In this document: in pieces, positions 4,699 to 20,457 of the stretch | How positions within the stretch are numbered: the stretch's first letter is position 1 | Layout of the letters: each line of letters starts with the position of its first letter | DNA from: an uncultured Verrucomicrobia subdivision 3 bacterium | GTDB lineage: Bacteria > Verrucomicrobiota > Verrucomicrobiia > Limisphaerales > DASXHY01 | Direction of reading: 5' to 3' | DNA length: 64,000 nucleotides | NCBI GenBank assembly: GCA_937890005.1 | Contig: CALBZA010000026.1 | Location: 3,841 to 67,840, forward strand | Notes under the pieces: model-generated | What the model was told of the DNA's origin: nothing | The model's database searches: none | What the model saw: only the letters and a program-made list of their open reading frames with translations | Translations under genes and position numbers: made by a program

Positions 4699-4740
4699 CT
4701 ACTACCGGTTCACATTGCCGACTGGAGGGGATTTGCTGAT

Positions 4741-5016: not shown

Positions 5017-5083
5017 AATATCCTTGTCAGCGCGAACGTAAGAGTTCACAAGAGGTGCGGATTCAAATTGGGGAAAGGGAAAT

Positions 5084-5281
5084 ATGCCAAAGGAAACAGT
5101 TACGCGGAGCGCGACCATTCAAGTTGAGAAAAAGGAGATCACAGTCCAACTCGTTGAAAACCCTCGGGGAAGCTGTGTCCGATTCATTGAGAGCAATGCT
5201 GCCGGACGACGCAATTACCGGATGGTTCCGGCAAGTGGATTGTCGGAACTGACAAAAGTGCTTCAGCAGCTCTCAGCGTAG
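5084..5281 (+). CDS. PUR-alpha-like (DUF3276-like) single-repeat nucleic-acid-binding protein
   Basis: 65 aa. The segment IQVEKKEITVQLVENPRGSCVRFIESNAAGRRNYRMVPASGLSELTKVL matches the PUR repeat pattern (...f.fdlkeNpRG.flrI.E.....r..i.iP..gl.ef...l). A GGGAAAGGGAAAT SD-like stretch lies upstream. Confidence 0.5.
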   Translation: MPKETVTRSATIQVEKKEITVQLVENPRGSCVRFIESNAAGRRNYRMVPASGLSELTKVLQQLSA

Positions 5282-5318
5282 CATCACAAACGAGATTCCT
5301 CGTTTTCACATCTATCAC

Positions 5319-5366
5319 AAGGGTAGGCACCCGCGCCTTGCCCTTCCGTTCGCCCTGCCTACCCTT
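5319..5366 (+). terminator. strong hairpin after the PUR-like gene (11-bp stem AAGGGTAGGCA/TGCCTACCCTT, 26-nt loop, then TTTG)
   Basis: The inverted repeat was read directly from the sequence. The long C-rich loop is atypical for an intrinsic terminator. Confidence 0.4.
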
Positions 5367-5502
5367 TTGAATAAGTAGCGGCGCAAGTGTGCGGGAAGCC
5401 TGTTGCAGGATTACACGCTGCCGTTTGCGGGGGATACACATCACAAGGAGTTGATCCGGCGCTAACCGGAAAAAACATATTGCTGTTTCCTCCAAGATTC
5501 CT

Positions 5503-5751
5503 TTGAATCGGCCCGGTAGGAAAGGACGCGAATTGATCCAAGACGCAAAACGAAAACGGCTCGCAAAGGAGTGGCTAATCTTCATTGTGTCAGTTCTTCC
5601 CGGCACCCTGTTTGTCATCGTCGCAGCCATAGCTGAAGACGGCGCGCCGTTCTGGGCATGGACCTTAATTCCGTTTGGGCCTTACGCCCTGATCATGATT
5701 CTTCGCTCAATTGTCTGGTCTGTGAAAGTTCTGCGGTCGCGACAACAATGA
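5503..5751 (+). CDS. small membrane protein (2 predicted TM helices)
   Basis: WLIFIVSVLPGTLFVIVAAIA and WTLIPFGPYALIMILRSIVW are hydrophobic spans. The start is uncertain: TTG at 5503 or the in-frame TTG at 5533. Its stop overlaps the next ATG (ATGA). Confidence 0.45.
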   Translation: MNRPGRKGRELIQDAKRKRLAKEWLIFIVSVLPGTLFVIVAAIAEDGAPFWAWTLIPFGPYALIMILRSIVWSVKVLRSRQQ

Positions 5752-6320
5752 AGAAAGTTAAAATTCAAGATGATGCGGGACTTGCGTACTGCGTTGAGCA
5801 TGCAAGCGCCTTGATACAAGCAATTCACGATTACGCGGGACGTGATTTCACGAAGAAGTGGAAGCTTCGTTTTCCGCGGGGTTATGTTCGAACAGCACAA
5901 GAACAAAGACAACGGTTATCGTTTATTCCAGATGGCCCTTTGAAAGACAACATTGCTTATACGCTGATTCTTGCTGATACGACTCACTGGCTTCTGTGCA
6001 GAACTGATGTCACCCACACAATACAGGAACAGCTTATCAAACTTCACCTATTTCTCCTTGGCGCACTGGTTGAAAGCATTACGAAAGTCTATTTGTCTGG
6101 CAAATGTGGGAAGAGCTATAAAATCCGAACGGAATATCTAGTCACTCACCACCACATCACTCCCAAATTGAAAATCGATTTGGACTGGCTCTGGGATATG
6201 CGGAACAACATGCATTTGTTCCTCGTGCCCAATTCGGAGTATAGCTGTCCCGATTACACGGTCGCCAACTATAGTCGCGGAGTGGCGGCATTTCGTGAGC
6301 TAGTCAATGGGCTAGCCTGA
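5748..6320 (+). CDS. hypothetical 190-aa protein, AT-richer, translationally coupled to the membrane protein
   Basis: MKKVKIQDDAGLAYCVEH..., with ATG at 5748 inside track ORF 5658..6320. Contains DMRNNMHLF, which is HEPN-like but one residue short of Rx4-6H. Confidence 0.6.
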   Translation: MKKVKIQDDAGLAYCVEHASALIQAIHDYAGRDFTKKWKLRFPRGYVRTAQEQRQRLSFIPDGPLKDNIAYTLILADTTHWLLCRTDVTHTIQEQLIKLHLFLLGALVESITKVYLSGKCGKSYKIRTEYLVTHHHITPKLKIDLDWLWDMRNNMHLFLVPNSEYSCPDYTVANYSRGVAAFRELVNGLA

Positions 6321-6680
6321 GCATTCCATTTCCAAGCTGCGAAAGCGCTTCGGAAAAGGGTTCGCCCGACGTTCACAACTACAACATTCCTTGAGCTGCC
6401 TGGGCTAAAACACGCGTTTGTCTGCGCGGATCGGCCGTTCTAGCGTTTTCCCATTGGAAGTGCAGAGACTCGACTTGCACTAACAAACACACCGAACACA
6501 AGTGCTGCGTCACGGTCGTCCGCCTCCTCCTTGCCGCATTTTTCTGCCGCAGCTAGATAATGTCTGAAAGCGGGCAGCGGGCCTGATCCCCCGTTGAAGA
6601 TTCCCGGCTGGCGGTGGTTGTGTTTTTCATTATTGCCGCTTCTGCCGCTGGCCGGAATCGCTCGCGAACAAAATAATGAA

Positions 6681-7694
6681 ATGAACTACACGATTGAGCG
6701 GGACGAATCCGATTACCTCGACAGACAGTATGAGCTGGGGGCCCAAAAATTGGAGGACGAAGAAGCAGACACACGCTGCAGGTTCCAAGAAGTTGCCGTT
6801 TTCGATCCGAGCGAGGTTTCCAAGGCACTGCTGGAAAGCGAATGGGCTGACCTGCAAGGTCGTGAATCGGACGGAAGCCTTGAACAGCCCTCAAAAATAT
6901 CTAGCCCCTACATCAACGCGCCGCTGCCCCTCTTGGGAATCATGCACGGCGAGGACGTTCACCGCAGGAAAGCGTTTGAAAGGGAAGACCCACGTGATCG
7001 CAAAGCCTTCTGCAACTTCTTTCGTAGCTATGCGATTTGTTACTATGCACAGAACTTGTATCGCAAAACAGCAAAGGATGAAATGAACGGTCTGCGCTAT
7101 CCCGAGAAGACACCAACCGGCTTTAACAGGAACAATCCAAGGCATCGAGCGCTGGGCGCTGCGATGTTCGCGATGAATCGCGGCGGCGGCAGTGTTAAGC
7201 GAATCTTCGGACATTGGAACACGGCACGAGAATTCATGAAGGAGCGTCAGCTTGCCGAATGTGAGCAGGCACGTTTTCAGATTTCATTGAAGCTGCTTGG
7301 GCCGGAATACGATTTTTTGAGCCTGCGCGATCTTCGTGTGCTGATGGCTGTAAACTCGTGCATGGGTGAGGACGGATTCGGCACGATAAGCTGGCGGGTT
7401 CTATCGTGGCGCGCCGTGGGTGCAACGAACGAAGCGGGGCTAGAGTTGCTGGGCGTTAAGCCGCTTGGAAAGCATCAAGTGGAGAATGCCCTTGAGCGGC
7501 TGCAAAAGCATGGACTGATCCACCGCTTGGAAGTCAGGAAAGGGGTGGACAGTCGTGTTACCTTCGTTGCAAAAGGCACCATGTCGGAAAACGTGTTTCA
7601 CACGCTCGTTGCCGACAGAGTCTCCAAGGGCAAAGCTCGGCGTGGCGTGCTTCGGAATGGCAAACTCATTGTTCTTGGACGACTGGCGGAGTGA
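6681..7694 (+). CDS. hypothetical protein with a C-terminal winged-helix-like segment (candidate replication/regulatory protein)
   Basis: The track ORF 6594..7694 starts at a TTG; the first ATG is at 6681 (MNYTIERD...). The C-terminal LSLRDLRVLMAV...GKHQVENALERLQKHGLIHRLEVRKG looks like a wHTH. Confidence 0.5.
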   Translation: MNYTIERDESDYLDRQYELGAQKLEDEEADTRCRFQEVAVFDPSEVSKALLESEWADLQGRESDGSLEQPSKISSPYINAPLPLLGIMHGEDVHRRKAFEREDPRDRKAFCNFFRSYAICYYAQNLYRKTAKDEMNGLRYPEKTPTGFNRNNPRHRALGAAMFAMNRGGGSVKRIFGHWNTAREFMKERQLAECEQARFQISLKLLGPEYDFLSLRDLRVLMAVNSCMGEDGFGTISWRVLSWRAVGATNEAGLELLGVKPLGKHQVENALERLQKHGLIHRLEVRKGVDSRVTFVAKGTMSENVFHTLVADRVSKGKARRGVLRNGKLIVLGRLAE

Positions 7695-7720
7695 GGAACA
7701 TCCAACGCCCTGTTTCACGT

Positions 7721-7752
7721 GGTGCCTACCTGCGGTGCCTACCTGCGGTGCC
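7721..7752. repeat. 13-bp tandem repeat GGTGCCTACCTGC x2.5
   Basis: Read directly from the sequence. Lies in the intergenic region after the wHTH gene. Confidence 0.85.
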
Positions 7753-7756
7753 ATAT

Positions 7757-7780
7757 AATAAAAGCTTCAATAAAAGCTTC
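7757..7780. repeat. 12-bp tandem repeat AATAAAAGCTTC x2
   Basis: Read directly from the sequence. AT-rich, and adjacent to the 13-bp repeats. Confidence 0.85.
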
Positions 7781-7784
7781 CATA

Positions 7785-7815
7785 GCGCCCGCCGCTTTTT
7801 TGGCGGCGCGGGCGC
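7785..7815. other. GC-rich imperfect hairpin (GCGCCCGCCGC-T6G-GCGGCGCGGGCGC)
   Basis: Inverted repeat with a 2-nt bulge; the T-run sits in the loop. Confidence 0.5.
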
Positions 7816-7885
7816 TGTATGCGAAGAAGGAGAGAGAGATGTGTGTTTCCTCAGAAAAGCAGAAAACGCCAATTTGCTTAGGTGA

Positions 7886-8929
7886 ATGGAACGGAAGGAG
7901 GGAGAAGAACGAAAACACCAAATGAAAAATCTCCTTGCAGCCAAAACCAGAAAGAGCAAATTCCGCCTCATGACAAAGGAGAAAGCCAATTTGCAGCCAA
8001 ATGGAGAAGATGCTTCGTCTGAAGATGTGTTGCTTCCCACTCCCGAAGAACAACTGCAACGTCAGGAGCGCGAAAAGCGCGATGCGTTTGTGAGGCAGAT
8101 TGAGGGCTTTTTAGAGAATGATCCCGAGTTGCGTTCAATCGTGTTCCACCGGATTAAGGAAAATGCCCGTAAAAGGATTGAAACCCTCCGTAAAGGGGAA
8201 GCGATTGAAGAGATTCTCCAGATGCAAAAGCGCGAAAAGGACAACGCTAACGCGTTAGCGGTGCTTTCTCAAAGAATTCGGACAGGGACGCTCCAGGAAA
8301 AAACAAAAGCCCTCCAATCGCTCGTGGGCGAGATTGCGGACCGACAACAGAACATCGACAAAAACGAACGTGCCGCGGCGAACTCTATGAACTTGGCCGT
8401 GACGTATGCCAAAGAAATTGGAGACAGATTGCAGTTCGCAAAGGATCATTTGATTCCCGAAGGACAATACGAAAAGTGGGTTGAAGAGACATTTGACGGC
8501 ATTTTCAAACCTTCCACCGCTCGCCTCTATCGACAAATCGCCGCACCTCAGAATTGGAAAAAGATCGCAAAAAAGGTCAACACACCCCCGGGGTTGAGCC
8601 TGCGAGCGGCCCGCGCACTTCTCACGGACAAACCCGAAAAGCAGAGCAAATCCGAAATAGAAAAGACGCGCGCAAAGTTGGAAAAGAAAGCTTTGGAAAA
8701 GTTCCGCGAACTCATAGCTGGATGGCCCCCAAAGATGCTCGATGAAGTGACATTCTCCAACGCATGGTTTTGGGGAAGGCTCGACAAGGAGGCGCAAAAG
8801 CTCTGCAACCCCAGCGAAATGGCGAGGGAGTCGGCGAGGAACTTCCGTCGGTTGCTCAATGCTCAACGCCAAATGTTGAACGCCGGACAGTTTTCGCCAG
8901 CGGACCTATTGGAATCCGATTTTCATTAA
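7886..8929 (+). CDS. DUF3102-like coiled-coil protein
   Basis: 347 aa and K/E-rich. KDHLIPEGQYEKWVEETFDGIFKPSTARLYRQIA resembles the DUF3102 core (HGeW..Wle..f..s.rtA..ym). An alternative start is at 7922. Confidence 0.5.
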   Translation: MERKEGEERKHQMKNLLAAKTRKSKFRLMTKEKANLQPNGEDASSEDVLLPTPEEQLQRQEREKRDAFVRQIEGFLENDPELRSIVFHRIKENARKRIETLRKGEAIEEILQMQKREKDNANALAVLSQRIRTGTLQEKTKALQSLVGEIADRQQNIDKNERAAANSMNLAVTYAKEIGDRLQFAKDHLIPEGQYEKWVEETFDGIFKPSTARLYRQIAAPQNWKKIAKKVNTPPGLSLRAARALLTDKPEKQSKSEIEKTRAKLEKKALEKFRELIAGWPPKMLDEVTFSNAWFWGRLDKEAQKLCNPSEMARESARNFRRLLNAQRQMLNAGQFSPADLLESDFH

Positions 8930-8934
8930 ATACC

Positions 8935-9699
8935 ATGAGTTCAGAATCGAAGCCCACGGACCTACTCGGTCTCGCCCCTTACGGTGAAGCAGTAAAGTCT
9001 GCCACCGACAAGACTTTCGAAACGGCTCAGGCATTTCTCTACGCTTTGTGTCGCCCCGCAGCTGAAGAAGCGGGCTTGCTTTTCCGGGACCAGATACGCT
9101 TTTGGAGAGCGAAGAACCTAGCTCGGATCGCTGAGAAGGCTCAGGCATTCACAACTGTCACGCCTGAAGGTCTGCAATTGCAGGCTCCGCCAAGAGTTGT
9201 TCACGAGATCATCGAGCACGGTTCATGGTGCGAGCAGGAGGAGCTCCAAAGCATGTGGGCTGGACTCTTGGCCAGCTCCTGCACCAAAGATGGCGTAGAT
9301 GATTCGAGCTTACCATTCATAGACATATTAAAACGCATTACGTCAGCGGAGGCTAAACTTATAGAACATGTCTGCAAAAACTCGATCGTGGATGCCAGTC
9401 CTTCGGGTGTGCTTCGAGGCAGGTCTGTAGATTTATCCCTTGAGCAGATTCAGGCGATTACTGGATGGAAGGACAAGACTCTCGCGCAGGCTTGTATCGA
9501 ACACCTAGTTTCCCTCGGGTTGTTGAAGGAGCAACCTGCCATTTTCTTCAACGGAACACCGAAAGTTCCCTGGATTCAACCAGAACCGTTGACTCTCCAT
9601 TTCTATGTCCGTTGCTGTGGTTCCAGAATAGCCACAAAACAGTTTTTTGACGAACTAGCAAGTAAGACCGGAAAGACCGCTTTTTCGGAGGCGGAGTGA
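8935..9699 (+). CDS. Abi-alpha family (DUF4393/PF14337-like) protein
   Basis: The ATG at 8935 lies within track ORF 8764..9699. Matching segments are MSSESKPTDLLGLAPYGEAVKSATDKT..., AEEAGLLFRDQIRFWRAKNLARIAEKA, and EELQSMWAGLLASS...FIDILKRITSAEAKLIEHV. Together they fit the family pattern as I recall it. Confidence 0.6.
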   Translation: MSSESKPTDLLGLAPYGEAVKSATDKTFETAQAFLYALCRPAAEEAGLLFRDQIRFWRAKNLARIAEKAQAFTTVTPEGLQLQAPPRVVHEIIEHGSWCEQEELQSMWAGLLASSCTKDGVDDSSLPFIDILKRITSAEAKLIEHVCKNSIVDASPSGVLRGRSVDLSLEQIQAITGWKDKTLAQACIEHLVSLGLLKEQPAIFFNGTPKVPWIQPEPLTLHFYVRCCGSRIATKQFFDELASKTGKTAFSEAE

Positions 9700-9705
9700 G
9701 TAGTC

Positions 9706-9873
9706 ATGGCAGAGAAGAATTACATTACGTATCGCAAACACCTCGAATATTGTGCGCTAATATCTGCGTTTGGAACAAACAGTTCAGCCTCCCTGATGCA
9801 AACGCGTGTCGCGCGGGAAAACGTGCAGGAAGGGCGGGCAAAGGGGTACTGCAGGGCGGAAAACAAGCATTGA
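9706..9873 (+). CDS. possible 55-aa ORF downstream of Abi-alpha (below the track cut-off)
   Basis: My own translation gives MAEKNYITYRKHLEYCALISAFGTNSSASLMQTRVARENVQEGRAKGYCRAENKH. No motif found, so coding status is uncertain. Confidence 0.2.
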   Translation: MAEKNYITYRKHLEYCALISAFGTNSSASLMQTRVARENVQEGRAKGYCRAENKH

Positions 9874-9923
9874 TCACACGTTAAGGACTACGTGTAGGAG
9901 GCATCTGGCTGGATTAGATTTTA

Positions 9924-9947
9924 GATGCGTTTTTGGATGCGTTTTTG
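9924..9947. repeat. 12-bp tandem repeat GATGCGTTTTTG x2 upstream of the small serine recombinase
   Basis: Read directly from the sequence. Confidence 0.85.
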
Positions 9948-10062
9948 GAACACCCTGAACACGCTCCCCTTTGGTCTCTACAGAACACCTCACGGCAGCA
10001 GGACAAAACGACCGTTTACTTCACGACTGCCTGCCAGATACTCACTCTCGTAAAATGCGAGC

Positions 10063-10731
10063 ATGAAACATTGCGTCGCGTATTTCAGAGTATCAACAAA
10101 GCAGCAGGGAATGGACGGCCTCGGAATGGAGGCACAGCGAACAGCGGTCGCACAGTTCCTAGCATCACGGAACCTCCACTTGCTTGCGGAGTTCGCAGAG
10201 GTGGAAACAGGGAAGCGGAAGGATCGTCCAGAACTCACAAAAGCAATCGCACTGTGCAGGAAAGCAAAGGCAACGCTTGTGATCGCAAAGCTGGACCGGC
10301 TGGCACGCAATGCAGCGTTCGTGCTGAATCTCCGGGATTCCGGCGTGGACTTTGTTGCGTGCGACATGCCGGACGCAAACAAGCTCACAATCGGCATCAT
10401 GGCACTAGTGGCGGAACAGGAGCGGGATTGGATCAGCGAACGCACAAAGGCAGGACTGGCAGCGGCAAAGCGCAGGGGCACCCAGCTTGGCAATCCCCGC
10501 ATCGCAACAGCTCGCACGCTAGCAATCGCTGCAACGAAGGAGAAAACACGGGCATTCACCGACAGGCTTGCGCCGGTGATCGCAGAGATTACGGCTGCGG
10601 GTGTTACGACTCTCAAAGGAATCGCACAGTGCCTCAATGCGCGTGGATTCAAAACACCACAGGGCGCAGCATTCACAAGGCAAGCGGTTGCGAAGCAGAT
10701 GAGACGACTTCGCAAAGAACGTCAGGCATAG
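10063..10731 (+). CDS. small serine recombinase (resolvase/invertase type)
   Basis: The N-terminus MKHCVAYFRVSTKQQGMDGLGMEAQR contains the catalytic Ser motif. Also has LVIAKLDRLARN and ERDWISERTKAGL. Confidence 0.9.
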   Translation: MKHCVAYFRVSTKQQGMDGLGMEAQRTAVAQFLASRNLHLLAEFAEVETGKRKDRPELTKAIALCRKAKATLVIAKLDRLARNAAFVLNLRDSGVDFVACDMPDANKLTIGIMALVAEQERDWISERTKAGLAAAKRRGTQLGNPRIATARTLAIAATKEKTRAFTDRLAPVIAEITAAGVTTLKGIAQCLNARGFKTPQGAAFTRQAVAKQMRRLRKERQA

Positions 10732-10779
10732 CTTCTAAACCAGTTGCCGCCACTCGTTCGTCTCGCGCATTGTCGCAAC

Positions 10780-11202
10780 ATGGACGAGACGGCGGAAGAG
10801 ACGCAGGACAGGGCCGACATTCGGAAACAGGGACGCAGGGCGCAGAAGCGCAAGAACATCACACTCTCCAAGCAGTTTTCTCCCCGATTCTGGGAACAGT
10901 CCGATTCTCGCGTTGCGGTGGTCCGCGCAATTCGCCGCCGGTATGAACTTTTGAAGCAGCACGCAGGCGGCGAAGAATCCTATCAGCGCGATCTACTCTG
11001 CCAGCGCACTGCTTTCATTTCCGTGATCCTCGAAACGCAGGAGGTTGAGGCGGCTGAGGGTGGCTCACTGGACATGAGCGTCTATGTGCAGGCCATTAAC
11101 TGTTTATCGGGCCTGCTCCGCTCCTTGGGGCTGGAACGCCGGATCAGGAACGTGACAGACCTCAGCGCCTACCTTGAGAAGAAACGGAGCGCAGCGCAGT
11201 GA
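10780..11202 (+). CDS. putative terminase small subunit (assigned by position only)
   Basis: ~140-aa basic protein immediately upstream of TerL and overlapping its start. No diagnostic motif. Confidence 0.35.
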   Translation: MDETAEETQDRADIRKQGRRAQKRKNITLSKQFSPRFWEQSDSRVAVVRAIRRRYELLKQHAGGEESYQRDLLCQRTAFISVILETQEVEAAEGGSLDMSVYVQAINCLSGLLRSLGLERRIRNVTDLSAYLEKKRSAAQ

Positions 11203-12698
11203 ACATCCTCGATGCAATCAGAGACGAGAACTTGTTCCGGCCGTTTCTCGGTGATGATTTGAGCACGTGGAAGTATTGGGGAATTGCATTGCGTGCGCTT
11301 TACGGGATCCCAATCAAATCACTTAAAGGACGAGCCTTCGTGCAGCAATGCACAGGCAGGGATGCCAGTGAGCTTCCAGCAGAAGGATTTCAATCCGCGC
11401 TGTTCCTCGTAGGCAGACGGAGTGGCAAATCTCGTATCGCGGCAGTGATCGGCGGTTTTGAAGCGCTGTTCGGTGGACATGAGAAGCGGCTTGCGAAGGG
11501 TGAAACCGGAATCATCCCTATCATCAGCCCTTCAAAATTCCAGAGCGGAATCGTTTGGAAATACATCCGCGGTCTTTTTGATGTTCCACTGCTGAAACAG
11601 GAAGTGGTCAACGAATCCGAGCGTGATCAAACGATTACGCTTCAGAACGGAATCGAAATCCGAATTCTCACAGGCGATTGGCGCACTGTGCGCGGGCCGT
11701 CGGTCGTTTGCGCAATTATCGACGAGGTATGTTTTTTCGGTGTCACAGAAGAATCGAAGGTGCGCAGCGACACTGAACTGGTTCGCGCTTTGCGCCCGGC
11801 ATTGCTGACGACGAAGGGGAAGTTGATTGGCATTTCCTCGAAATATGCGCAGAAGGGGTGGGCCTATGGCACTTGGAAGAAGCAGCACGGAGCGAACAAG
11901 GGAGATGCGCAGTTCAATCCGAAATGGCGCACACTCGTTTGGGACACCGATTCCCGGACGATGAATCCCACGCTGTCGGAAGCAGAGATCGCAGCGGCAT
12001 ACGAAGAAGACCCAGCGGCAGCTCGAAGTGAATTCGGCGGCTGCTGGCGCGAAGACATTGAAGAATTTGTTCCCCGATCCATGATCGAATCGCTTGTTGC
12101 TGCAAACAGGCGAGAACTGCTTCCGCGTTCACTTTCGTATTCCGCAGGCGTGGATTTGAGCGGTGGACGCGGCGACAGCGCCGCATTGTGCATCGTTCAC
12201 AAGGAAGAGCGGCGAGTTGTGCAGGATTTCATAAAGGAGTGGCACGCACCCTTCAACCCGTATTCCGTAGTTTCGGAGATTGCGAGTGAGTTGAAGCGTT
12301 GGAATCTCCGTTCAGTGCGCGGGGACAACTACGCCGGCGACTGGCCTGTTCAGGCGTTTCGCGAACACGGAATACGTTACCTTCCAGCTGATCGCAGCAA
12401 ATCAGAACTCTATCGCGAAATGCTGCCTGTGTTGTGCGGCGGCAAAGCATCAATCGAACTGCTCGACAATGCCACACTGGTAAATCAGCTCGCATCGCTG
12501 GAGCGCAAAACACGCAGCGGGGGCAATGATGTGATTGACCACCCCCGAGGCGGAAAGGACGACGTTGCGAACGCCCTAGCTGTTGCGTGCAGTGCAGCAT
12601 CGCAAAAGCGGCTCCGAGCGGGTGGACTGTGGCGGATTGATCTGAACGCTTCCGAAGAATTTCCAAGCCGTCTTGCAATTCTCCAACAAACCCAATGA
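11199..12698 (+). CDS. terL: terminase large subunit
   Basis: Walker A-like VGRRSGKSRIAA and Walker B-like VCAIIDEVCFF. Nuclease-half motifs GVDLSGGRGDSAALCIVH and VIDHPRGGKDDVANALA. GTG start overlapping the upstream stop. Confidence 0.75.
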   Translation: MNILDAIRDENLFRPFLGDDLSTWKYWGIALRALYGIPIKSLKGRAFVQQCTGRDASELPAEGFQSALFLVGRRSGKSRIAAVIGGFEALFGGHEKRLAKGETGIIPIISPSKFQSGIVWKYIRGLFDVPLLKQEVVNESERDQTITLQNGIEIRILTGDWRTVRGPSVVCAIIDEVCFFGVTEESKVRSDTELVRALRPALLTTKGKLIGISSKYAQKGWAYGTWKKQHGANKGDAQFNPKWRTLVWDTDSRTMNPTLSEAEIAAAYEEDPAAARSEFGGCWREDIEEFVPRSMIESLVAANRRELLPRSLSYSAGVDLSGGRGDSAALCIVHKEERRVVQDFIKEWHAPFNPYSVVSEIASELKRWNLRSVRGDNYAGDWPVQAFREHGIRYLPADRSKSELYREMLPVLCGGKASIELLDNATLVNQLASLERKTRSGGNDVIDHPRGGKDDVANALAVACSAASQKRLRAGGLWRIDLNASEEFPSRLAILQQTQ

Positions 12699-12704
12699 AC
12701 GATT

Positions 12705-13175
12705 ATGAATGACAATCCTGTGATGATGAAGGTCCGAGCGTTCGAGGAACGGCACGGTTCCGAGAAGTATTCTGACGGCGCTGCGTGGTTTTACGCGGAC
12801 GGTGCGATGCGTGACATGAATCCGATCGGCATATTGATGGAGCCGCCTGACTCCGGCACCGACGAGGGGGAATACAAAATGGCCCTGCACAAACTCAAGT
12901 TCGCGCAGCTCAAACTCCAGACCGCCGTTTCGGAGTTCGACCAGCTGAACACGCGGCTGGCACACACGATTCCGATGGACCCGGATGCGGATTTGGCAGA
13001 GCTAAAGCGTCTCGCAAAAGTGGTAGAGAGCCGGAAGAAGCTTGTGACGGAGGCAGAGGAAGGCGTTGCTAATACCCGCTGGGGTCGCCGTCGAGCCGAA
13101 CTGAGGCGAGCAGACGAGGAACAGCGTCAGCGCATGGCTGACTTCAACGAGAAGCGCCGTTCCATCCGAGTGTAA
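12705..13175 (+). CDS. hypothetical coiled-coil protein
   Basis: 156-aa ORF, same strand, tightly packed after TerL. Confidence 0.5.
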   Translation: MNDNPVMMKVRAFEERHGSEKYSDGAAWFYADGAMRDMNPIGILMEPPDSGTDEGEYKMALHKLKFAQLKLQTAVSEFDQLNTRLAHTIPMDPDADLAELKRLAKVVESRKKLVTEAEEGVANTRWGRRRAELRRADEEQRQRMADFNEKRRSIRV

Positions 13176-13191
13176 CGCAATCAAATCACTT

Positions 13192-13485
13192 ATGAATACG
13201 ACTAGAGTTCAACTGCCGGACGGACGACTGCTCACCATCGAGGGTGGCACCGCAGAAACCACCGCAGCATTGCTGAGAAACCACTATCTCACGCCAGCTG
13301 CAACACAGGAACGTGAAGCCCTTGCGACTAACGAGGAACCAATGACGATGCCGAGCCTCCAAGATGCGCTTCAAAACCAGCAGCATCAACGCATTCGCAC
13401 CGTGGTGCAGAACCTTCCGCGTCCGGTTGTGAATGAAACAGACGAGCAACCGCTGGAAATGCCCCGGATGAAGTTCTCTGAGTGA
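13192..13485 (+). CDS. hypothetical protein
   Basis: 97-aa ORF with an ATG start. Confidence 0.45.
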   Translation: MNTTRVQLPDGRLLTIEGGTAETTAALLRNHYLTPAATQEREALATNEEPMTMPSLQDALQNQQHQRIRTVVQNLPRPVVNETDEQPLEMPRMKFSE

Positions 13486-13778
13486 TCTTCAGTTCCGGCG
13501 TCAATGCGATTGCCGTATTGCACGCCGTAGCTATTTTCAGAGTGCCAGCTTGTTTCTGTTTGGAGCTGGTGAGTTACCGACAGCCGTCCCTTTGACTTTC
13601 CACAATGGGACGGCGCTTTTTCCAGCTTCCTCCGTGTCCGTTTCTGCGTTCCGGCCCCAAATGCGCTGTCATGAGCGGGATCTTACTGCTTAGGTCCAAG
13701 GTGGGGCATTGGCAGGTCCAGGCAGGGTGTTTACACGTTGCCGGGGAACAGCGCACACAAGCGGAGGATTGTTCGCTG

Positions 13779-14258
13779 ATGTTCTTAAAAACCATCAATA
13801 CCGTTGCTCACGCGATGCTCATGGATGCACAAATGCCAGTGGTGCTTACAGGCACCGCAGACGGCAATGAAGCCCCTGCATCGAAGGTAAAGCAAATGAA
13901 CAAGAACACTGCGCCGAAGTTCCAAACCCCACACGAAAAAGCCAAATCAGCTCCGCGTCCCAAGCAGCCGGTGAAAGCAAGAGCGAAGAAGTCGGCGAAA
14001 TCCATCAAACCGCGGAAGGGCAAGTTGGGGCTGTTGCTCGGTCACTCGGTTGTCTCCGTGATCCGAGCAATGGGCAAGGCAGGCTGGACATACGAAACAG
14101 CCCGTGCTGCACTGGACAAGGCCGGGATTGAAGCTGCAACGCATACCGTGAAAGTTGGGCTGAAGCGGGGACGCGACGGACAGAAACGCATTGCGCCTCT
14201 CACGGAAAAACAGCTTCAGAGCCTCAAGGTGAAACCGACAACAGCACAGAAGCAATGA
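13779..14258 (+). CDS. lysine-rich basic protein, ATGA-coupled to the large serine recombinase
   Basis: The ATG at 13779 is preceded by GGAGGA. Contains a K-rich tract KAKSAPRPKQPVKARAKKSAKSIKPRKGK. Its stop overlaps the integrase ATG. The track ORF begins earlier, at 13605. Confidence 0.45.
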   Translation: MFLKTINTVAHAMLMDAQMPVVLTGTADGNEAPASKVKQMNKNTAPKFQTPHEKAKSAPRPKQPVKARAKKSAKSIKPRKGKLGLLLGHSVVSVIRAMGKAGWTYETARAALDKAGIEAATHTVKVGLKRGRDGQKRIAPLTEKQLQSLKVKPTTAQKQ

Positions 14259-15937
14259 GCAGGGGAAAACAGAAAATACTCCGTTTCGCCGCGCTGCGCC
14301 GTGTCTCTACGGAGCAGCAAGAGAAGGTTGGTGAATCGCTCCAGACACAGACAAAGGACATCGCATCAACTGTGAAAGACTTGGGTGGTGTCGTTGTCGA
14401 GTGGTATGGAGGGCAGGAACACGCAACACCGGGCCACGAGAAGCGGGAAGTCGAGCGATTGCTCCACGATGCACAGCGAAACCGGTTTGATGCCTTGATC
14501 GTGGCGCATCCGGACAGGTGGAGCCGCGATAATTCTTCCAGCCGCGCAGGACTGGAACTGTTCCGCGAGCACGGCGTGAGGTTCTTTGCTGGTGCAACGG
14601 AATACGACCTGTTCAATCCGGATCACGAGCTGTTCCTCGGGATTTCAGCCGTCGTCGGACAATTCCAAGCGCGCCAGCAAATGCTCAAGTCGATGAAAAG
14701 CCGCATCGAACGGGCAAAGGGAGGAGTTCCCACAGGGGGACGCCTCCCGTTTGGACGTGTTTTCGTGCGCAGCAAGGATAGGCGAACGGGCCATTGGGAA
14801 ATTGATCCAGCGAAGCATGAGATGGTGAGGGACTGCGCCAAGCGTTATCTGAAGGGTGAATCGCTCGTTGATCTAGCTGCCGAATATAACGTGAATGCGT
14901 CGAACCTTTGGAAGGTGCTTACGAAGGTGAGCGGCTCCAAATGGAAAGTTGAATTCAGCTCCAAGGTGCTCAATCTGCACGAGATTGTAGAACTTGATGT
15001 GCCTCCTTTGCTAGACAAGGAGACAATCGAGGCAATTTGCAGCAAAGCAGAAGCAAATCGCACCTACACGCACGGGCATATCAAACATCGGTATCTGTTC
15101 TCCCGGATGATTTTTTGCGCTCATTGCGGCTATGCGATGATGGGACAGACGAACCAGAATACAAAGCGCTACTACAGACACGCGCACACTGAACGAGATC
15201 GCGTCTGCAACGGCGCACCAAGAAAGGGATGGATCCCGGCTGATGCGATTGAGGACAACGTGATGCGCCACCTGTTTGAAACCTTCGGCAATCCGGTCGC
15301 AGTGCAGCGAGCAATCGAGGAAGCGACTCCAAACAGCGACAGGATTCAGCAAGCGGTCAAACGCAAGGGGTTCGTGGAGCAGGAACTGGAGACGATTGAG
15401 AATTCCCGGCAGCGAATTCTCAGATTGATTGTGAAGGGGACGATTGAAGAAGCAAACGCAGAGACGGAGCTTAAGAAGCTCAAAAACCGCGAACAGAAGC
15501 TAACCGACGAGCGAACACGGCTCGAAGATGAGCTTGCGCATGTTCCATCGCGGGAAGTGCTAAAATCGGCCTCAAGGAAGATCGCCGGAAAGTTCCTTCA
15601 ATACACCAGTGCCAAAACTTGGGCAAAAACTCGGCAGGCGAACGAAGCGTTCGATGCGATGAGCTTTGAGGAGAAGCGTGCGCTCTGTGAATCTGTGTTC
15701 GCCGGAAAAACAACCGACGGACGGCGCACGGGCATCTCCATAGCGTGGGACAGCACTGGAAAGAAGTGGCGCTATCGAATCGAAGGATTGTTGATAGATG
15801 CAGAAGGCCCGATCAGTGAGGGCGCATTTGTTTTCGGGGCACCGCAGGGTCAGAAAGCTCTAGTGGGTAAATTTGCATCGCAAACGCCATGCACATCACG
15901 GCAAGCGTTTACATCAATGACGCCGAGGACGGATTAA
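14255..15937 (+). CDS. large serine recombinase (integrase)
   Basis: 560 aa. The resolvase domain has [11 protein letters not shown] and [13 protein letters not shown]. It is followed by a recombinase domain, a zinc-ribbon-like CAHCGYAM...C segment and a coiled coil. The last 14 codons read across attR into yjbQ DNA in another frame. Confidence 0.9.
15884..15900. other. attR junction (element AAACGCC | ATGCA | host CATCACG)
   Basis: See attL. The single a/c difference just left of ATGCA fits host versus element arms. Confidence 0.65.
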
Positions 15938-16179
15938 TTCACGATTACGACGTCTGGCTGGAGAAACTCGCGCCCCACGCGCCGACGTCGCAGTATCATC
16001 ACAATCGCACCGGCGAGGACAATGCCGACGCGCACATGAAACGCCAGATCATGGGACGGGAAGTCGTCGTCGCGATCACCAAAGGAAAGCTCGACCTCGG
16101 ACCCTGGGAACAGATCTTCTACGGCGAATTCGACGGCCGCCGCCGAAAACGTGTTCTCGTGAAAATCATTGGCGAATAG
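15889..16179 (+). pseudogene. yjbQ: yjbQ 3' portion, copy A (96-codon ORF beginning at the internal Met)
   Basis: [96 protein letters not shown] is a typical UPF0047 C-terminal core. Confidence 0.8.
15900..16178 (+). repeat. direct repeat copy A (279 bp, 3 mismatches versus 17337..17615)
   Basis: Base-by-base comparison at a constant offset of 1437 bp. The differences are at 15903, at 15930 (gac/gat), and at the stop third base (TAG/TAA), which lies just outside the repeat. Confidence 0.9.
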
Positions 16180-16225
16180 CACTGTGTAATTTGCGGCGAG
16201 TTGCCGAATTCATCAGCCCGCGACC

Positions 16226-16242
16226 GCGACTCTGCGAGTCGC
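16226..16242 (+). other. hairpin GCGACTC-TGC-GAGTCGC downstream of copy A
   Basis: Read directly from the sequence. No T-run follows. Confidence 0.4.
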
Positions 16243-16304
16243 AGCGGGGTGGATCGCCGAATTGAATCTGAACAACCTCAACCTTTGAAAGCGAACGGTG
16301 CGCC

Positions 16305-17336
16305 ATGACACTCAAACAAATCTATAAAAAGACTTGCTCCGAATATTTTTCAATTCCAGATGAGGAAACAGAGTCTGCATTCGGCCAGCGCAAGCCGATA
16401 GGAGGAGATGTTCTGAACAGAAGCCCAGCCAAAGAAAAGTTCTACCAAGAGCATCTGCGCTACACGGAAATTGTGCCTTCTATCGAACACACAGAGATAG
16501 GTGAGGACGTCGTGTTGCGACGATTCATGGATTTGCCAAAATTCATCGACCTCATTGTCAATAAGCGACTGTTACTGCCGACTGTCAAAAAACTGCAAGA
16601 GGGAGACCCACATGAATGTGAGGCATCACCAGACTACAGCAGAATTTCAGATGATGCTTTGAAAAAAAGTATTTTGGATTTGGCAGAGGAATACGTCACA
16701 GAAGCAGACTTGAATTTATGGCGCCCGCTACAGTTTGACTTGCTTGTCCTTGGCCAACGCCAACCAGTCACCAAGAGCTCTGTGAGTGAAGTCCTAGACA
16801 AGATGTCTCAAGACGAGCTTAGGCAGGCTGCGTGGTGTGTTGAGCACAGGAGATTGCAAGATGAGCTTTGCTGCAATTGTTGGTATGATAGCGAACTGGA
16901 ATCCGATGCCATGTGGAGGCTCTATTGCGACCGTGTAGGAGTTTCCATCGCAACCACGGTAAAAACTTTGCAGAGATCGATTAAATGTGAAGTTCCAATG
17001 ATATTCAAAGACCGCATGAAACTGCATCTCGCAAAGGTGACCTACAGCGATGCTTCAACAGTTTCAGATGCCCCATCGTGGTTGATTAAGAGGTCCGCAT
17101 TCAGACATGAACATGAAGTTCGCTTTTTCATCGATTATCCATTCCCTCGAAACGAAGGTTTTGTACTAACAGTTGAACCTTTGACACTGATAGAGGAAAT
17201 GACGGTTTCTCCCTATGCACCGCGCTGGCAGGCTAACGCAATTGAAGCCATGGCCCGCCGAATTCTAGGAGACGGACTGAAAATCAAAGCATCAAAGCAT
17301 CGCAACTCACTGAAGCCGCCTTGGCCTCAACGTTAA
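16305..17336 (+). CDS. DUF2971-like protein
   Basis: 343 aa, AT-richer. Matching segments, in DUF2971 motif order, are [67 protein letters not shown] and [15 protein letters not shown]. Confidence 0.6.
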
Positions 17337-17615
17337 GGCGAGCGTTTACATCAATGACGCCGAGGATGGATTAATTCACGATTACGACGTCTGGCTGGAG
17401 AAACTCGCGCCCCACGCGCCGACGTCGCAGTATCATCACAATCGCACCGGCGAGGACAATGCCGACGCGCACATGAAACGCCAGATCATGGGACGGGAAG
17501 TCGTCGTCGCGATCACCAAAGGAAAGCTCGACCTCGGACCCTGGGAACAGATCTTCTACGGCGAATTCGACGGCCGCCGCCGAAAACGTGTTCTCGTGAA
17601 AATCATTGGCGAATA
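17337..17615 (+). repeat. direct repeat copy B
   Basis: See copy A. Confidence 0.9.
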
Positions 17616-17616
17616 A
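17341..17616 (+). pseudogene. yjbQ: yjbQ 3' portion, copy B (no start codon; probably the displaced native 3' end)
   Basis: Encodes the same peptide, [10 protein letters not shown]...KIIGE, ending in TAA. Track ORF 17371..17694(-) is its antisense shadow. Confidence 0.75.
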
Positions 17617-17642
17617 CTCGCTCCCGGAAAACGAACGTTGCT

Positions 17643-17659
17643 GCGGGTCACAGACCCGC
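17643..17659 (+). terminator. hairpin GCGGGTC-ACA-GACCCGC after yjbQ copy B
   Basis: Read directly from the sequence. A T-rich stretch appears only ~35 nt later. Confidence 0.35.
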
Positions 17660-17820
17660 GCTCCTGTGACGGTCCACTGAGCGGCGCTTTGCATTTTTTG
17701 CCCTGCTTTCCCGGCTGTTTTTTGTCCTTTCCTGAAAATAAATTCATCTAAGCCCGGCCATGATCGCGCCGATAGTAGGGAGGTCGGCTCCTGACATGGA
17801 CCGCATGGCAGTTAGATGAA

Positions 17821-20457
17821 ATGCATTTGAATATGGAAAGCCGACGGATTCTGGTCGTGGATGACAATCCCGCCATTCATCAGGATTTCCGCAAAATCCT
17901 GGGGCAGGACGTGCCCGGCCTGAATGAACTGCAATCGACCGAAGCCGCCTTGTTCGGCGACACCGACTTCGAACCCGAAGAAACCCGATACGAACTCGAC
18001 TCGGCGTTTCAGGGTGAACAAGCGCTCGAAATGGTCAGGAAAGCTGTTCAAGAAGGCCGTCCTTACGCGATGGCCTTCGTGGACATGCGGATGCCGCCCG
18101 GCTGGGATGGCGTCGAGACGACCGTGAGATTGTGGGAGGTCGATCCGCACCTTCAAATTGCGTTCTGCACGGCGTATTCCGATTACTCCTGGAAATCAGT
18201 GCGCACGAAGCTCTCCAAGGTGGACAGTTTCGTAATTCTCAAAAAACCTTTCGAGACGGTGGAAGTCCTTCAACTGGCCGACGCCTTCTCGACCAAGCGG
18301 CGTCTTTCAGTCGAAACCGAATTACATCTCCGCGAACTGCGCGAAAGCCAGGAACGCTATCACCTTTTGACCAATGCGGTACCCGCCGGGGTTTGGACTG
18401 CGAACAGCAACGGTGAAGGCGACTATGTGAACAAACAGCTGAAGGAATACTGCGGCTGGTCACACGATCACATGGGAGGCGCGGCGTGGCAGGAGCATAT
18501 TCATCCGGACGATTACCCAGCCACGATCGAGACATGGCGAAAATCGCTGGCGAGTGGCGGCGTCTTTGAAAGCGAATTCCGTTTTCGAAAGGCGAACGGT
18601 GAATATCACTGGCACCTTTCACGCGCGCAACCGTTTCGCGGCCCGGATGGCAGCATCCTCCAATGGGTCGGCACACTCACAGACATCGAGGCGCAGAAAC
18701 AGCTCGAACAAACACTGCGGGACTCCAAATCCGAACTTGAGGCTCGCGTCGCCGAACGCACGAACGCTCTCGCACGGGAACGTGATCTTCTGATGGCTCT
18801 GATGGAGCACGCGCCGGACTCGATTTATTTCAAGGACGCCTCGTTCCGTTATACGCGCATCAACAAATCCTTCGCACACCTTTTGGGACTCAACGATCCC
18901 GCCGAGGCTGTCGGCAAAACGCTTCAAGAGTGTTGTCCGCACAGCAGCAACGTGCAGGACATCGTGCACGAAGAACGAATGGCCGTGACGGGCGAACCGA
19001 TCGTGGACTGGCGCATGCCGATCCGCTCGCCGTCGGGAAAGATCGTCTGGATTTCAAACACGAAGGTTCCTCTCAGAGATCGCGAGGGCAAGTTCGTCGG
19101 CATCGTTGGAATCGCCCGCGACATCACGGAACGCAAATTGTTCGAAGAAGAACTCGCATATGAACGCGAACTGCTCCGGACACTTCTCGACAGTTCGCCG
19201 GACTTCATCTTTTTCAAGGACACGGAATCCCGGTTCCTCCGCTGCAGCCAGACGCTGGCGGAACAATTCGGCACCACGCCGGAGCAGATCATTGGAAAAA
19301 AATCCTCCGACTTCCTCGAAAGCGAACACGGCGAAGACTCCTACAATGACGAGCAGCGGATTATCGAGACCGGAGAATCAATCGTCGGAAAACTCGAACA
19401 GCTGAGACTGAAAGGCAGCAGCGAGCTCCGATGGATTCTCACGAGCAAGATGCCGCTCCGGAATGCGGAGGGAAAAATCATCGGCACGTTCGGCATTTCG
19501 AAGGACATCACCGAGATCAAGGAAAACGAGCGCGCGCGCCAGATGATGGAACTTCAGCTGCGCCAGGGACAGAAGCTCGAGGCCATCGGCCAGCTCGCCG
19601 CCGGCATCGCGCACGAGATCAACACGCCGACACAATACGTTGCCGACAACACGCGGTTCCTTCGCGATTCCTTCGCCAGCATCTTCAATGTCCTGAACGT
19701 CGGCAAGGAACTGCTTGAGGCCACCCAGAAAGGAACTGTCACTGACGTTCTCGTTCGGAACGTCGAAGCCACGATCCACTCCGCCGACCTCGACTATCTG
19801 TCAGAACAAATTCCCGCTGCGATTCGCGAAACGCTGGAAGGTGTTGAGCGCGTCACGAAAATCGTCCGTGCGATGAAGGAATTCTCGCATCCCGGCGGCA
19901 AGGACAAATCGCCCGCGGACCTGAACAAAGCGATTGAAACAACCGTCACCGTTGCACGCAACGAGTGGAAGTATGTCGCCGACATGGTGCTGGAACTGGA
20001 TCCCGCCCTGCCACAGATCCCCTGTTTCATCGGTGAATTCAACCAGATCGTGCTGAACCTCGTCGTCAACGCGGCCCATGCAATCAGCGACGTTGTGAAA
20101 CAGAAGCCGGGAACGAAAGGCACGATCACCGTCAGCACGCGACGCGATGGGGATTGCGTTGAATTGCGTGTGAGCGACACGGGAACCGGCATCCCCGAGT
20201 CCGCGCGAGGTCGAATCTTTGAACCCTTCTTCACGACGAAGAATGTCGGCAAGGGCTCCGGCCAGGGGCTTTCGATCGTTTACGGAAGCGTCGTGAACAA
20301 GCACAACGGAACAATTCATTTCGAGACCGAAACCGGCAAGGGAACGACATTCATCATCCGACTGCCGATCGCCCCGTCGTCCGAATTGAAATCAGGCCAC
20401 GTTGGACGCGCACCGGCGGTTCATCTCAACAAACTTCCCCAGCCCGCCCATTCATGA
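17821..20457 (+). CDS. hybrid sensor kinase: N-terminal REC, three PAS-like regions, HisKA-HATPase
   Basis: RILVVDDNPAIHQDF...AFVDMRMPPGWDG forms the REC domain. Repeated PAS-like blocks follow (WTANSNGEGDYVN..., IYFKDASFRYTRIN..., FIFFKDTESRFLRCS...). H-box GIAHEINTPTQYV. G-boxes DTGTGIP and GSGQGL. Confidence 0.9.
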   Translation: MHLNMESRRILVVDDNPAIHQDFRKILGQDVPGLNELQSTEAALFGDTDFEPEETRYELDSAFQGEQALEMVRKAVQEGRPYAMAFVDMRMPPGWDGVETTVRLWEVDPHLQIAFCTAYSDYSWKSVRTKLSKVDSFVILKKPFETVEVLQLADAFSTKRRLSVETELHLRELRESQERYHLLTNAVPAGVWTANSNGEGDYVNKQLKEYCGWSHDHMGGAAWQEHIHPDDYPATIETWRKSLASGGVFESEFRFRKANGEYHWHLSRAQPFRGPDGSILQWVGTLTDIEAQKQLEQTLRDSKSELEARVAERTNALARERDLLMALMEHAPDSIYFKDASFRYTRINKSFAHLLGLNDPAEAVGKTLQECCPHSSNVQDIVHEERMAVTGEPIVDWRMPIRSPSGKIVWISNTKVPLRDREGKFVGIVGIARDITERKLFEEELAYERELLRTLLDSSPDFIFFKDTESRFLRCSQTLAEQFGTTPEQIIGKKSSDFLESEHGEDSYNDEQRIIETGESIVGKLEQLRLKGSSELRWILTSKMPLRNAEGKIIGTFGISKDITEIKENERARQMMELQLRQGQKLEAIGQLAAGIAHEINTPTQYVADNTRFLRDSFASIFNVLNVGKELLEATQKGTVTDVLVRNVEATIHSADLDYLSEQIPAAIRETLEGVERVTKIVRAMKEFSHPGGKDKSPADLNKAIETTVTVARNEWKYVADMVLELDPALPQIPCFIGEFNQIVLNLVVNAAHAISDVVKQKPGTKGTITVSTRRDGDCVELRVSDTGTGIPESARGRIFEPFFTTKNVGKGSGQGLSIVYGSVVNKHNGTIHFETETGKGTTFIIRLPIAPSSELKSGHVGRAPAVHLNKLPQPAHS

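Follow-up and report, generated by a model that had tools for sequence, protein, structure and literature searches.

Organization of the yjbQ locus

The yjbQ gene of an uncultured Verrucomicrobia subdivision 3 bacterium (order Limisphaerales; GenBank assembly GCA_937890005.1, contig CALBZA010000026.1, positions 3,841–67,840) carries two neighboring inserts. We analyzed the 64,000-bp stretch that contains it, referred to as the window, and number positions from its first letter. An integrated element, here termed E1, splits yjbQ 16 bp upstream of a long direct repeat of the yjbQ 3′ end, and the two copies of this repeat (A and B) bracket a 1,158-bp cassette consisting of a 126-bp spacer and one open reading frame (ORF, 16305..17336) for a candidate anti-phage protein. 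By the similarity of its MutL (76–78% to MAGs of Akkermansiaceae and Verrucomicrobiae), the host belongs to the Verrucomicrobiota; a response-regulator gene lies at ~4300, ahead of yjbQ. The cassette, its distribution among strains and its possible origin are the subject of this study. The main features of the locus are:

4558..4698, + strand: yjbQ 5′ fragment (ORF list, sequence, Pfam UPF0047 profile positions 1–25)
4683..15884, + strand: E1, an 11,202-bp integrated element of the small prophage or satellite type, which splits yjbQ (X6 contig, GC content, TerL-like protein, arms)
15900..16178, + strand: repeat copy A, yjbQ codons 47–139 (repeat search, BLAST, Pfam UPF0047 1e-28)
16180..16304, + strand: spacer, GC content 0.58 (host-like), with a hairpin of 7-bp stem at 16226–16242 (sequence)
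16305..17336, + strand: cassette gene, 343 amino acids, GC content 0.46, PDC-S31/DUF2971-like, DarT-like candidate ADP-ribosyltransferase (PADLOC, Pfam, PHROG, AlphaFold2 model)
17330..17345, no strand: right junction J, ...CCTCAACGTTAA joined to GGCGAGCGT (sequence, compared with attR and the X2 empty attB)
17337..17616, + strand: repeat copy B, codons 47–139 plus TAA of the native yjbQ, now displaced (repeat search, ORF list, X3 empty-site contig)
17617..17820, + strand: native region 3′ of yjbQ, with a hairpin at 17643–17659 (X3 contig through 17623–18093, 2 differences)

An earlier note, made by reading the sequence alone, had described a near-identical direct repeat at a 1437-bp offset, and three comparisons agree with it. 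BLAST of an ENA contig (L001) against the window and a separate alignment both gave 277 of 279 identical positions between 15900–16178 and 17337–17615 at an offset of 1437 bp. A repeat search of the window returned one two-copy direct-repeat family (15893–16178 and 17330–17615, 98% identical, spacing 1437), in which the 7 additional left-hand bases (15893–15899) agree at alternate positions only, apparently a chance likeness. A 279-bp repeat at 99% identity cannot be of chance origin. Both internal mismatches are synonymous (15903 A/G, GCA/GCG; 15930 C/T, GAC/GAT), and the stop codons, TAG and TAA, differ at 16179/17616, one base beyond the end of the repeat. The GAC/GAT change and the differing stop codons stand as described earlier, but two mismatches, not three, fall inside the 279 bp.

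Copy A is contiguous with 15885–15899 (codons 43–46) and ends in a TAG stop at 16177–16179. The segments 4558..4686 and 15889..16179 together encode a 139-amino-acid YjbQ with Pfam UPF0047 matches on both parts and 94–95% amino acid identity to database YjbQ proteins, so copy A does continue the frame from attR. Removal of E1 would leave a complete yjbQ composed of the 5′ fragment and copy A. The 5′ fragment itself comprises codons 1–43, native up to the crossover at 4681–4685, followed by four codons of element DNA and a TAG stop. A start codon is missing from the 5′ edge of copy B, whose sole in-frame start is an internal ATG at 17473, and this copy also lacks the E1 attB. Both repeats have a host-like GC content (0.57, host 0.58), and the sequences 3′ of the two stops are unrelated, as reported earlier, one small hairpin motif excepted.

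Occurrence in other assemblies

Contig L001 matches the window over 15673–18082 at 100% identity and spans both cassette junctions. The junction of the TAG stop with the spacer and that of the gene's TAA with GGCGAGCG were also found on Joint Genome Institute (JGI) contigs L002 and L003 and on Logan contigs of at least seven runs. Because the junctions recur in several independent assemblies, the cassette gene is genuinely flanked by yjbQ fragments on both sides. Runs X1 and X2 and the ENA study ERZ7950xx, in which the organism occurs, come from compost-type material; a search for RNA, raw-read, and long-read runs that contain the region found none.

One run, X3, provides a same-species empty site. 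Its 4,863-bp contig is 99.4% identical to the window over 1500–4691 (3.2 kb of left flank) and continues through an intact yjbQ, a TAA stop and the native downstream flank, with neither insert; no cassette sequence at all was found in this run. Copy B, its TAA stop and the downstream flank are therefore native, as the native-looking region after the start-less copy had led the earlier note to propose. Contigs of X1, X2, X3 and X6 run from the yjbQ 5′ fragment straight into the 3′ part; X3 is the only firm same-species empty site, the "empty" contig of X2 being open to the doubt that the assembler switched between copies. A mosaic breakpoint at attB in X3, suspected from a loose-end consensus, was rejected: to the left and to the right of this point alike, identity of the 4.86-kb contig to the window is 99.4%, and the odd loose end belongs to another, small contig.

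Seven runs (X1, X2, X4, X5, X6, X7, and X9) contained pieces of the cassette, with zero depth over the whole of E1, and the cassette is therefore independent of E1. The comparison across strains that had been suggested thus shows it to be strain-variable, present in at least seven runs and absent from X3. The proposal that it is the older insertion fits its wider distribution in these E1-free runs, but E1 may also have been excised from them.

The two repeats are best understood as alleles. All other yjbQ loci fetched (more than 100) are at most ~86% identical in DNA, whereas the copies in the window are 99% alike, and both single-nucleotide polymorphism (SNP) states occur in the population: A15903/C15930 with TAA is the single-copy gene of X3, and the G/T state stands behind the 5′ part in X2. 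We therefore regard the repeats as two alleles of one species' yjbQ. Copy A of L002/X1 has two further differences; the copies differ at 5 sites in L002, against 2–3 in the window; whole-genome divergence between strains is 0.6%. The foreign replacement 3′ end envisaged earlier does not agree with copies that are identical at 277 of 279 positions and that both carry population alleles.

The outgroup loci came from an exact 30-mer scan of metagenomes that had been aimed at same-species contigs. Because this 30-mer, taken from the repeat, proved to be conserved across distant lineages, more than 119 yjbQ loci, most of them unrelated, were recovered at 70–86% identity; they served only as an outgroup and as the source of three loci considered below (L082, L105, and L121). 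A YjbQ protein search was uninformative at the strain level, with 90–95% identity across phyla. As a side observation, the 30 nt of yjbQ at 16108–16137 (and 17545–17574) are conserved base for base in more than 119 metagenome contigs whose genes are otherwise 70–86% identical, an unusually strong DNA-level conservation for a protein-coding gene.

The cassette gene and its junctions

At 0.46, the GC content of the cassette gene is below that of the host (0.58), whereas the spacer (0.58) and the repeats (0.57) are host-like, and on this basis we judge the cargo to be foreign. Its product matched PADLOC PDC-S31 (4e-18, 63.5 bits), phrog_34615 (5e-16), and Pfam DUF2971 (PF11185) at 21.4 bits, just under the cut-off of 22, in line with its earlier description as DUF2971-like. 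Sixteen homologues share 41–56% identity with it; H268-E269-x-E271 and several Tyr residues are invariant in the 17 sequences. An ExE motif occurs in DUF2971, a family predicted to comprise DarT-like ADP-ribosyltransferases (PMC12522546), and Aristaios is a validated DUF2971 single-gene abortive-infection system of phage resistance on Lactococcus plasmids (PMC11381338). The AlphaFold2 model of the cassette protein (predicted local distance difference test, pLDDT, 81.8) gave DarT structures as all of its best 6 PDB fold matches, which are weak (E-values 0.008–0.1, template modeling (TM) score 0.26–0.44). By analogy, a role in single-gene abortive infection is our best guess for this candidate defense gene.

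Distant relatives of the cassette protein occur on viral contigs. The gene contexts of the homologues contained neither yjbQ nor a common flank, and no relative of the gene was found in the loci of the E1 family. Beside a 50%-identical homologue on L006/L007 lies a 466-amino-acid protein (264–1664, minus strand) with DYSGMHPRLL and VHDSF motifs; read by its motifs, it resembles a family-A DNA polymerase, which suggests that this homologue too may sit on a mobile element.

At the right junction (J), the stop codon of the cassette gene directly abuts yjbQ codon 47 (CGTTAA joined to GGCGAGCG). The cassette-side arm reads ...CCTCAACGTTAA, also quoted as ...GCCTTGGCCTCAACGTTAA. J lacks the 17 nt AACGCCATGCACATCAC that contain the crossover of the E1 family, and with them the left half-site of the E1 attB and the crossover dinucleotide. 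All 16 homologues extend 9–18 residues past a conserved WP motif, whereas the cassette protein ends 2 residues past it, exactly at J. Because the protein stops at this very position, J resembles an illegitimate joint, and the C-terminus of the gene appears from the alignment to have been clipped there.

No recombinase lies inside the cassette, the sole ORF between the repeats being 16305..17336, and no att core or arm shared with related elements was found at its junctions. Compared with the P arms of E1, L082, L121, and L131–L137, the spacer and J showed a likeness no better than that of shuffled controls; a likeness of the spacer start to the P-left arm of E1 that had been seen by eye lies within these controls and was rejected. 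An integron gene cassette was likewise rejected. At the boundary CCTCAAC/GTTAAGG, each heptamer, judged by eye, departs from the attC consensus RYYYAAC...GTTRRRY in one end position; the vicinity contains no IntI-like gene, and integrons are not characterized by a duplication of 279 bp.

The TAG stop occurs solely with the spacer. The hairpins at 16226–16242 and 17643–17659 belong to one motif family (GCGRSTC-NCA-GASYCGC, 7-bp stem) and are the only two in the 64 kb (0.07 expected). They lie 47 nt 3′ of the copy A stop and 27 nt 3′ of the copy B stop, respectively. Both motifs, 53 nt apart, were also found on high-depth contigs of other organisms in all examined runs, and the hairpins may be elements resembling repetitive extragenic palindromes (REP-like). 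A conserved yjbQ terminator was rejected, as the hairpin is absent 3′ of yjbQ in ~120 other loci.

The integrated element E1

The limits of E1 are given by an X6 contig in which 4680 is joined to 15883, with 11202 bases skipped and five letters (AACGC) that fit both sides; this join therefore defines both the empty attB and the exact size of E1. The same core, AACGC, is shared by attL and attR (4681–4685 and 15883–15887). The GC content of E1 is 0.53 against 0.58. Its main genes, and the gene that follows the native region 3′ of yjbQ, are:

8764..9699: RepO-like/PDC-S47 protein of E1 (PADLOC PDC-S47 3e-11; phrog_2232; weak replication-initiator-O-like match)
11199..12698: TerL-like protein of E1 (phrog_2, 1e-16)
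14255..15937, + strand: large serine recombinase (integrase) of E1, 560 amino acids (Pfam Resolvase 2e-14, Zn_ribbon_recom 9e-10)
17821..20457: hybrid histidine kinase/response regulator gene

With its serine recombinase and its TerL-like and RepO-like/PDC-S47-like proteins, E1 resembles a small prophage or phage satellite, and the gene at 8764..9699 may be defense or replication cargo of its own. The last 18 codons of the integrase gene lie past the crossover, inside yjbQ DNA continuous with copy A (15885–15937). Since the ORF reads across attR into yjbQ, integration alters the C-terminus of the integrase; in the excised form (attP), a tail of ~18 residues would be different.

yjbQ as a reused landing site

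Relatives of the E1 integrase were found in 10 loci of Planctomycetota metagenome-assembled genomes (MAGs) at 41–57% identity. In six of the 10, and on one viral contig, the integrase adjoins a yjbQ fragment cut at the same codon, and in L132 and L133 both ends of a 9–10-kb element are visible. The element-side arms are homologous across loci (those of E1 to those of L131–L137), and the crossover is AA(CGC) of codon Asn43. The E1 junction follows this rule, whereas J, which begins at codon 47 and is without a family arm, does not. The family (E1, L131–L140, and L153) consists of ~9–11-kb elements with a large serine integrase, and E1, L132, and L135 additionally share a conserved module in which a TerL-like gene stands between small ORFs. 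Size and terminase suggest that these elements are phage satellites.

In three family members the element itself includes a full-length yjbQ and therefore replaces the gene it disrupts. Extra yjbQ fragments occur in three other lineages (L082, L105, and L121), and two further loci (L079 and L154) have yjbQ junctions with other element types. The relevant features, in the coordinates of the respective contigs, are:

L133, 2991–3404, minus strand: own yjbQ, 70 bp from attR
L140, 297–716, minus strand: own yjbQ, beside attL
L153 (viral contig), 4556–4972: own yjbQ, directly upstream of int
L082, 7640–8637: relic with full yjbQ, 273 bp, an attR-like arm (AAATGCC-ATGCA), and a 3′ fragment; copies 74% identical
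L121, ~1–1045, reverse strand: relic with yjbQ, ~650 bp that contain a single small gene, an arm resembling attR, and a 3′ fragment in decay; copies 84% identical
L105, 172–810: relic with a duplicated 5′ fragment (amino acids 1–54) ahead of a full yjbQ
L154, 2068–2230: yjbQ 5′ fragment with junction ...GGCGAGTGTCT joined to CACAAAA at codon 50, on a viral contig with XRE regulators and a T4-type terminase

The topology of the window recurs in L082 and L121, where a short insert separates a complete yjbQ from a displaced 3′ fragment; in L082, L105, L121, and L133 the copies are only 74–84% alike. The L154-type element joins at codons 47–50, where copy B of the window begins. In L156 (60–130), a relative of L154, the corresponding position reads GCGTGTCC, which suggests that yjbQ contains another recombination core; no yjbQ fragment was found in the L154 relatives L155–L158, and the L154 junction is a single example. 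Given integrase relatives at the same codon and the same layout in other lineages, yjbQ codons 43–50 are a reused landing zone in bacteria of the Planctomycetes–Verrucomicrobia–Chlamydiae (PVC) group. The idea of yjbQ as an integration hotspot, first raised from the window alone, now draws on the six MAG loci and the viral contig, the L154 type, and the three lineages with extra fragments. The yjbQ carried by L133 has synonymous changes within the attB core (AATGCG against AACGCC), which might shield the element's copy from integration.

Origin of the cassette

We tentatively propose, with a probability of roughly 45%, that the cassette is a strain-variable remnant of DNA inserted into the yjbQ hotspot by a homology-dependent route and separately from E1. 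The spacer and the DarT-like/DUF2971-like gene would have arrived joined to a conspecific yjbQ 3′ end, by a single-crossover (Campbell-type) insertion of a small circle or by a homology-anchored insertion. The sole novel joint would be J (17336/17337), an illegitimate joining of the 3′ end of the putative defense gene to yjbQ codon 47. Copy A would have kept yjbQ whole and so regenerated attB for serine-integrase elements, while the native 3′ end (copy B) was displaced downstream as a start-less fragment. On the assembly of the window, the integrase of E1 would then have inserted this element into the regenerated yjbQ; copy B is not open to E1, since it lacks the crossover. Without a recombinase or a usable att site, loss, conversion, or movement of the cassette today could proceed only by RecA-type recombination between the 279-bp repeats. 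The duplicated anchor is conspecific, and the alignment points to a single non-homologous joint, both of which a Campbell-type event would leave. The earlier note had offered such an event as its alternative, and it fits these repeats and J at least as well as a site-specific element does; the route itself, like the order of events, is our reconstruction. The note's first choice, an integrative element that brought its own gene end, draws no support from the cassette, which has neither a recombinase nor an att arm and whose junction J lies past the crossover.

Several observations weigh against this proposal. Neither a donor context (yjbQ, spacer, and a full-length gene) nor a circle was found, and the nearest homologue of the cassette gene is only 56% identical. 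Conservation in the C-terminal tails of the family is poor, which makes truncation of the gene at J likely yet uncertain. J lies 14–17 bp from the E1-family crossover and exactly at the L154 phage-type junction; a random illegitimate joint would fall so close in roughly one case out of 12, and the position is suggestive of a site-specific past, although the overlap with the L154 core region is positional only. L082 and L121 combine the same topology with a recognizable family attR, as a collapsed element would leave. The sequence to the left of copy A is visible only in the window and L001, both short-read assemblies of one study, and four E1-positive runs of thin coverage yielded no cassette contig where ~2 were expected. 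Finally, a JGI contig (L142) follows a path from E1 through the repeat to TAA and the native flank, with alleles of copy A in its left part and of the copy-B type in its right part.

The allele pattern of L142 matches the product of a 1437-bp deletion, though an assembler switch could explain it too. Contig L002, from the same sample (JGI 2199352012), carries copy-A-specific SNPs (16086C/16088G) that L142 lacks, and L142 may be a switch between copies rather than a strain with E1 and no cassette. We consider it likely that E1 and the cassette lie on one chromosome. An initial statement that all four combinations of E1 and cassette exist was withdrawn, as L142 is explicable in this way and X2 is likewise doubtful. 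The pair L142 and L002 is a worked case of a 279-bp repeat yielding a false "deletion" contig.

The strongest competing explanation, somewhat unlikely in our judgment, is that an older site-specific element, equipped with a yjbQ or yjbQ 3′ end of its own and with the defense gene as end-cargo, integrated at the hotspot and later collapsed. Recombination between the host 5′ fragment and the element's yjbQ, together with a small deletion at attR, would have removed the integrase and the rest. Full-length yjbQ genes are indeed carried by L133, L140, and L153, L082 and L121 match the predicted collapse products exactly, and J lies 14–17 bp from the family crossover at an L154-type junction core. 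Defense genes are common at the ends of prophages and satellites. However, the copies in the window are 99% identical, against 74–84% in L082, L105, L121, and L133, no att arm or core is left at J or in the spacer, and the cassette gene has no relative in any locus of the family. A further deletion, of attR plus 17 nt and the gene tail, would also be required. Between the two, homology-driven (Campbell-type) insertion is slightly favored over a collapsed older element.

An extension of the homology-dependent reading, which we consider improbable, is that the 1437-bp unit is a recombinase-free "homology-riding" defense cassette that spreads within the species as a circle or fragment. A RecA-dependent single crossover into the conserved yjbQ would restore both gene and attB on entry, and exit would proceed through the 279-bp repeats. 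If true, this would be a minimal mobile defense module that relies on a conserved gene end instead of an att site.

An accident of replication or repair that duplicated the 279 bp in situ and trapped a foreign segment in one step is very unlikely. The topology would be compatible with template switching or with foreign DNA caught at a break, perhaps one that an integrase had introduced at the neighboring attB, and J does look illegitimate and lies close to the site of the serine-integrase double-strand cut. Yet the copies differ at 2–3 sites here and at 5 in L002, no less than the strain divergence of 0.6%, with both states being population alleles and TAG found only with the spacer; two source alleles fit this better than a fresh copy does.

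There is also scant probability that the unit is an active integrase-less mini-element, a 1437-bp circle moved by the E1 integrase or another resident recombinase in the manner of a satellite of a satellite. E1 is immediately adjacent, presence and absence vary among strains, and L002 (1431 bp) and L003 (1387 bp) come close to the length of the unit; the ends of these contigs do not overlap, and contigs near unit length are typical assembler output at repeats. J lacks the E1 crossover and left half-site, no att-arm likeness was found, and seven runs contain the cassette without any E1. Because it has no recombinase, no att arm, and no dependence on E1, the cassette is not a current site-specific element, nor does it ride on E1 in the manner of a cis-mobilizable element (CIME).

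An assembly artifact is equally implausible: its strong form (no duplication) conflicts with the occurrence of each of the two junctions in several independent assemblies and runs, and a 1.4-kb circle without a replication gene could not persist alone, while its weak form (a chimeric linkage of E1 and cassette only) is possible and draws on the 246-nt identical core of the repeat, which exceeds usual assembly k-mers, on the breakage of contig L141 within the repeat, and on the L142 path, the cassette-free E1-positive runs, and the single study behind the left side of copy A described above.

Taken as a homology-dependent insertion, the cassette illustrates that a lone candidate anti-phage gene with no recombinase of its own can settle at a hotspot, persist there, and be lost again. 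Owing to the duplicated gene end, the target gene stays intact, as does the site at which other elements integrate, and homologous recombination of the ordinary kind gives a built-in route of loss or transfer. A side result may be of greater consequence: ~9–11-kb, terminase-bearing elements with serine integrases in Verrucomicrobiota and Planctomycetota have a conserved landing site in yjbQ codon 43, which offers a handle for finding satellites, relics, and cargo in the poorly studied PVC genomes.

Comparison with known systems

As a candidate defense gene, the cassette gene resembles Aristaios and DarT in being a single gene with a DUF2971-like signal, an ExE motif, and a tentatively predicted ADP-ribosyltransferase/DarT-like fold, located on mobile or variable DNA. 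It differs in a Pfam score just under the curated cut-off, a weak fold match (TM 0.26–0.44), a large N-terminal and helical extension, and the lack of an adjoining antitoxin gene such as darG.

Among integrated elements, the closest relatives in position are the E1 family and the relics L082 and L121, which share the target gene and lie within 17 bp, the relics having an identical topology. The relics keep an attR arm and core and have copies that are 74–84% alike, whereas the cassette keeps neither arm nor core and its copies are 99% identical. CIMEs, left by decayed integrative and conjugative elements (ICEs) in Streptococcus thermophilus, are flanked by functional att sites of their neighbor. 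They are likewise small integrase-less inserts at a hotspot, bordered by direct repeats and in tandem with an intact integrative element, but the distal junction of the cassette has neither the E1 crossover nor its half-site.

Campbell-type insertion and homology-facilitated illegitimate recombination have in common with the cassette the anchor copies that flank foreign DNA, a single illegitimate joint, and loss by recombination between the repeats with no need for site-specific machinery. Both are mostly known from laboratory constructs and transformation experiments, and to our knowledge no natural, population-level case with a defense gene exactly on the attB of a phage or satellite has been described.

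The layout of the window is that of e14 and phage 21, which integrate in icd of Escherichia coli: the upstream copy of the 3′ end keeps the frame and completes the ORF, and the native end is displaced as a pseudogene fragment. Both cases involve insertion inside a conserved coding gene, bracketed by a direct repeat of the gene end. However, e14 and phage 21 have their own integrase, a defined att core, and a replacement end visibly diverged from that of the host, whereas the cassette has no recombinase and no att arm, its repeats are 99% identical and conspecific, and one junction apparently cuts the cargo gene. The cassette is thus a new example of gene-end duplication at an integration site, in an unusual recombinase-free form with conspecific repeats.

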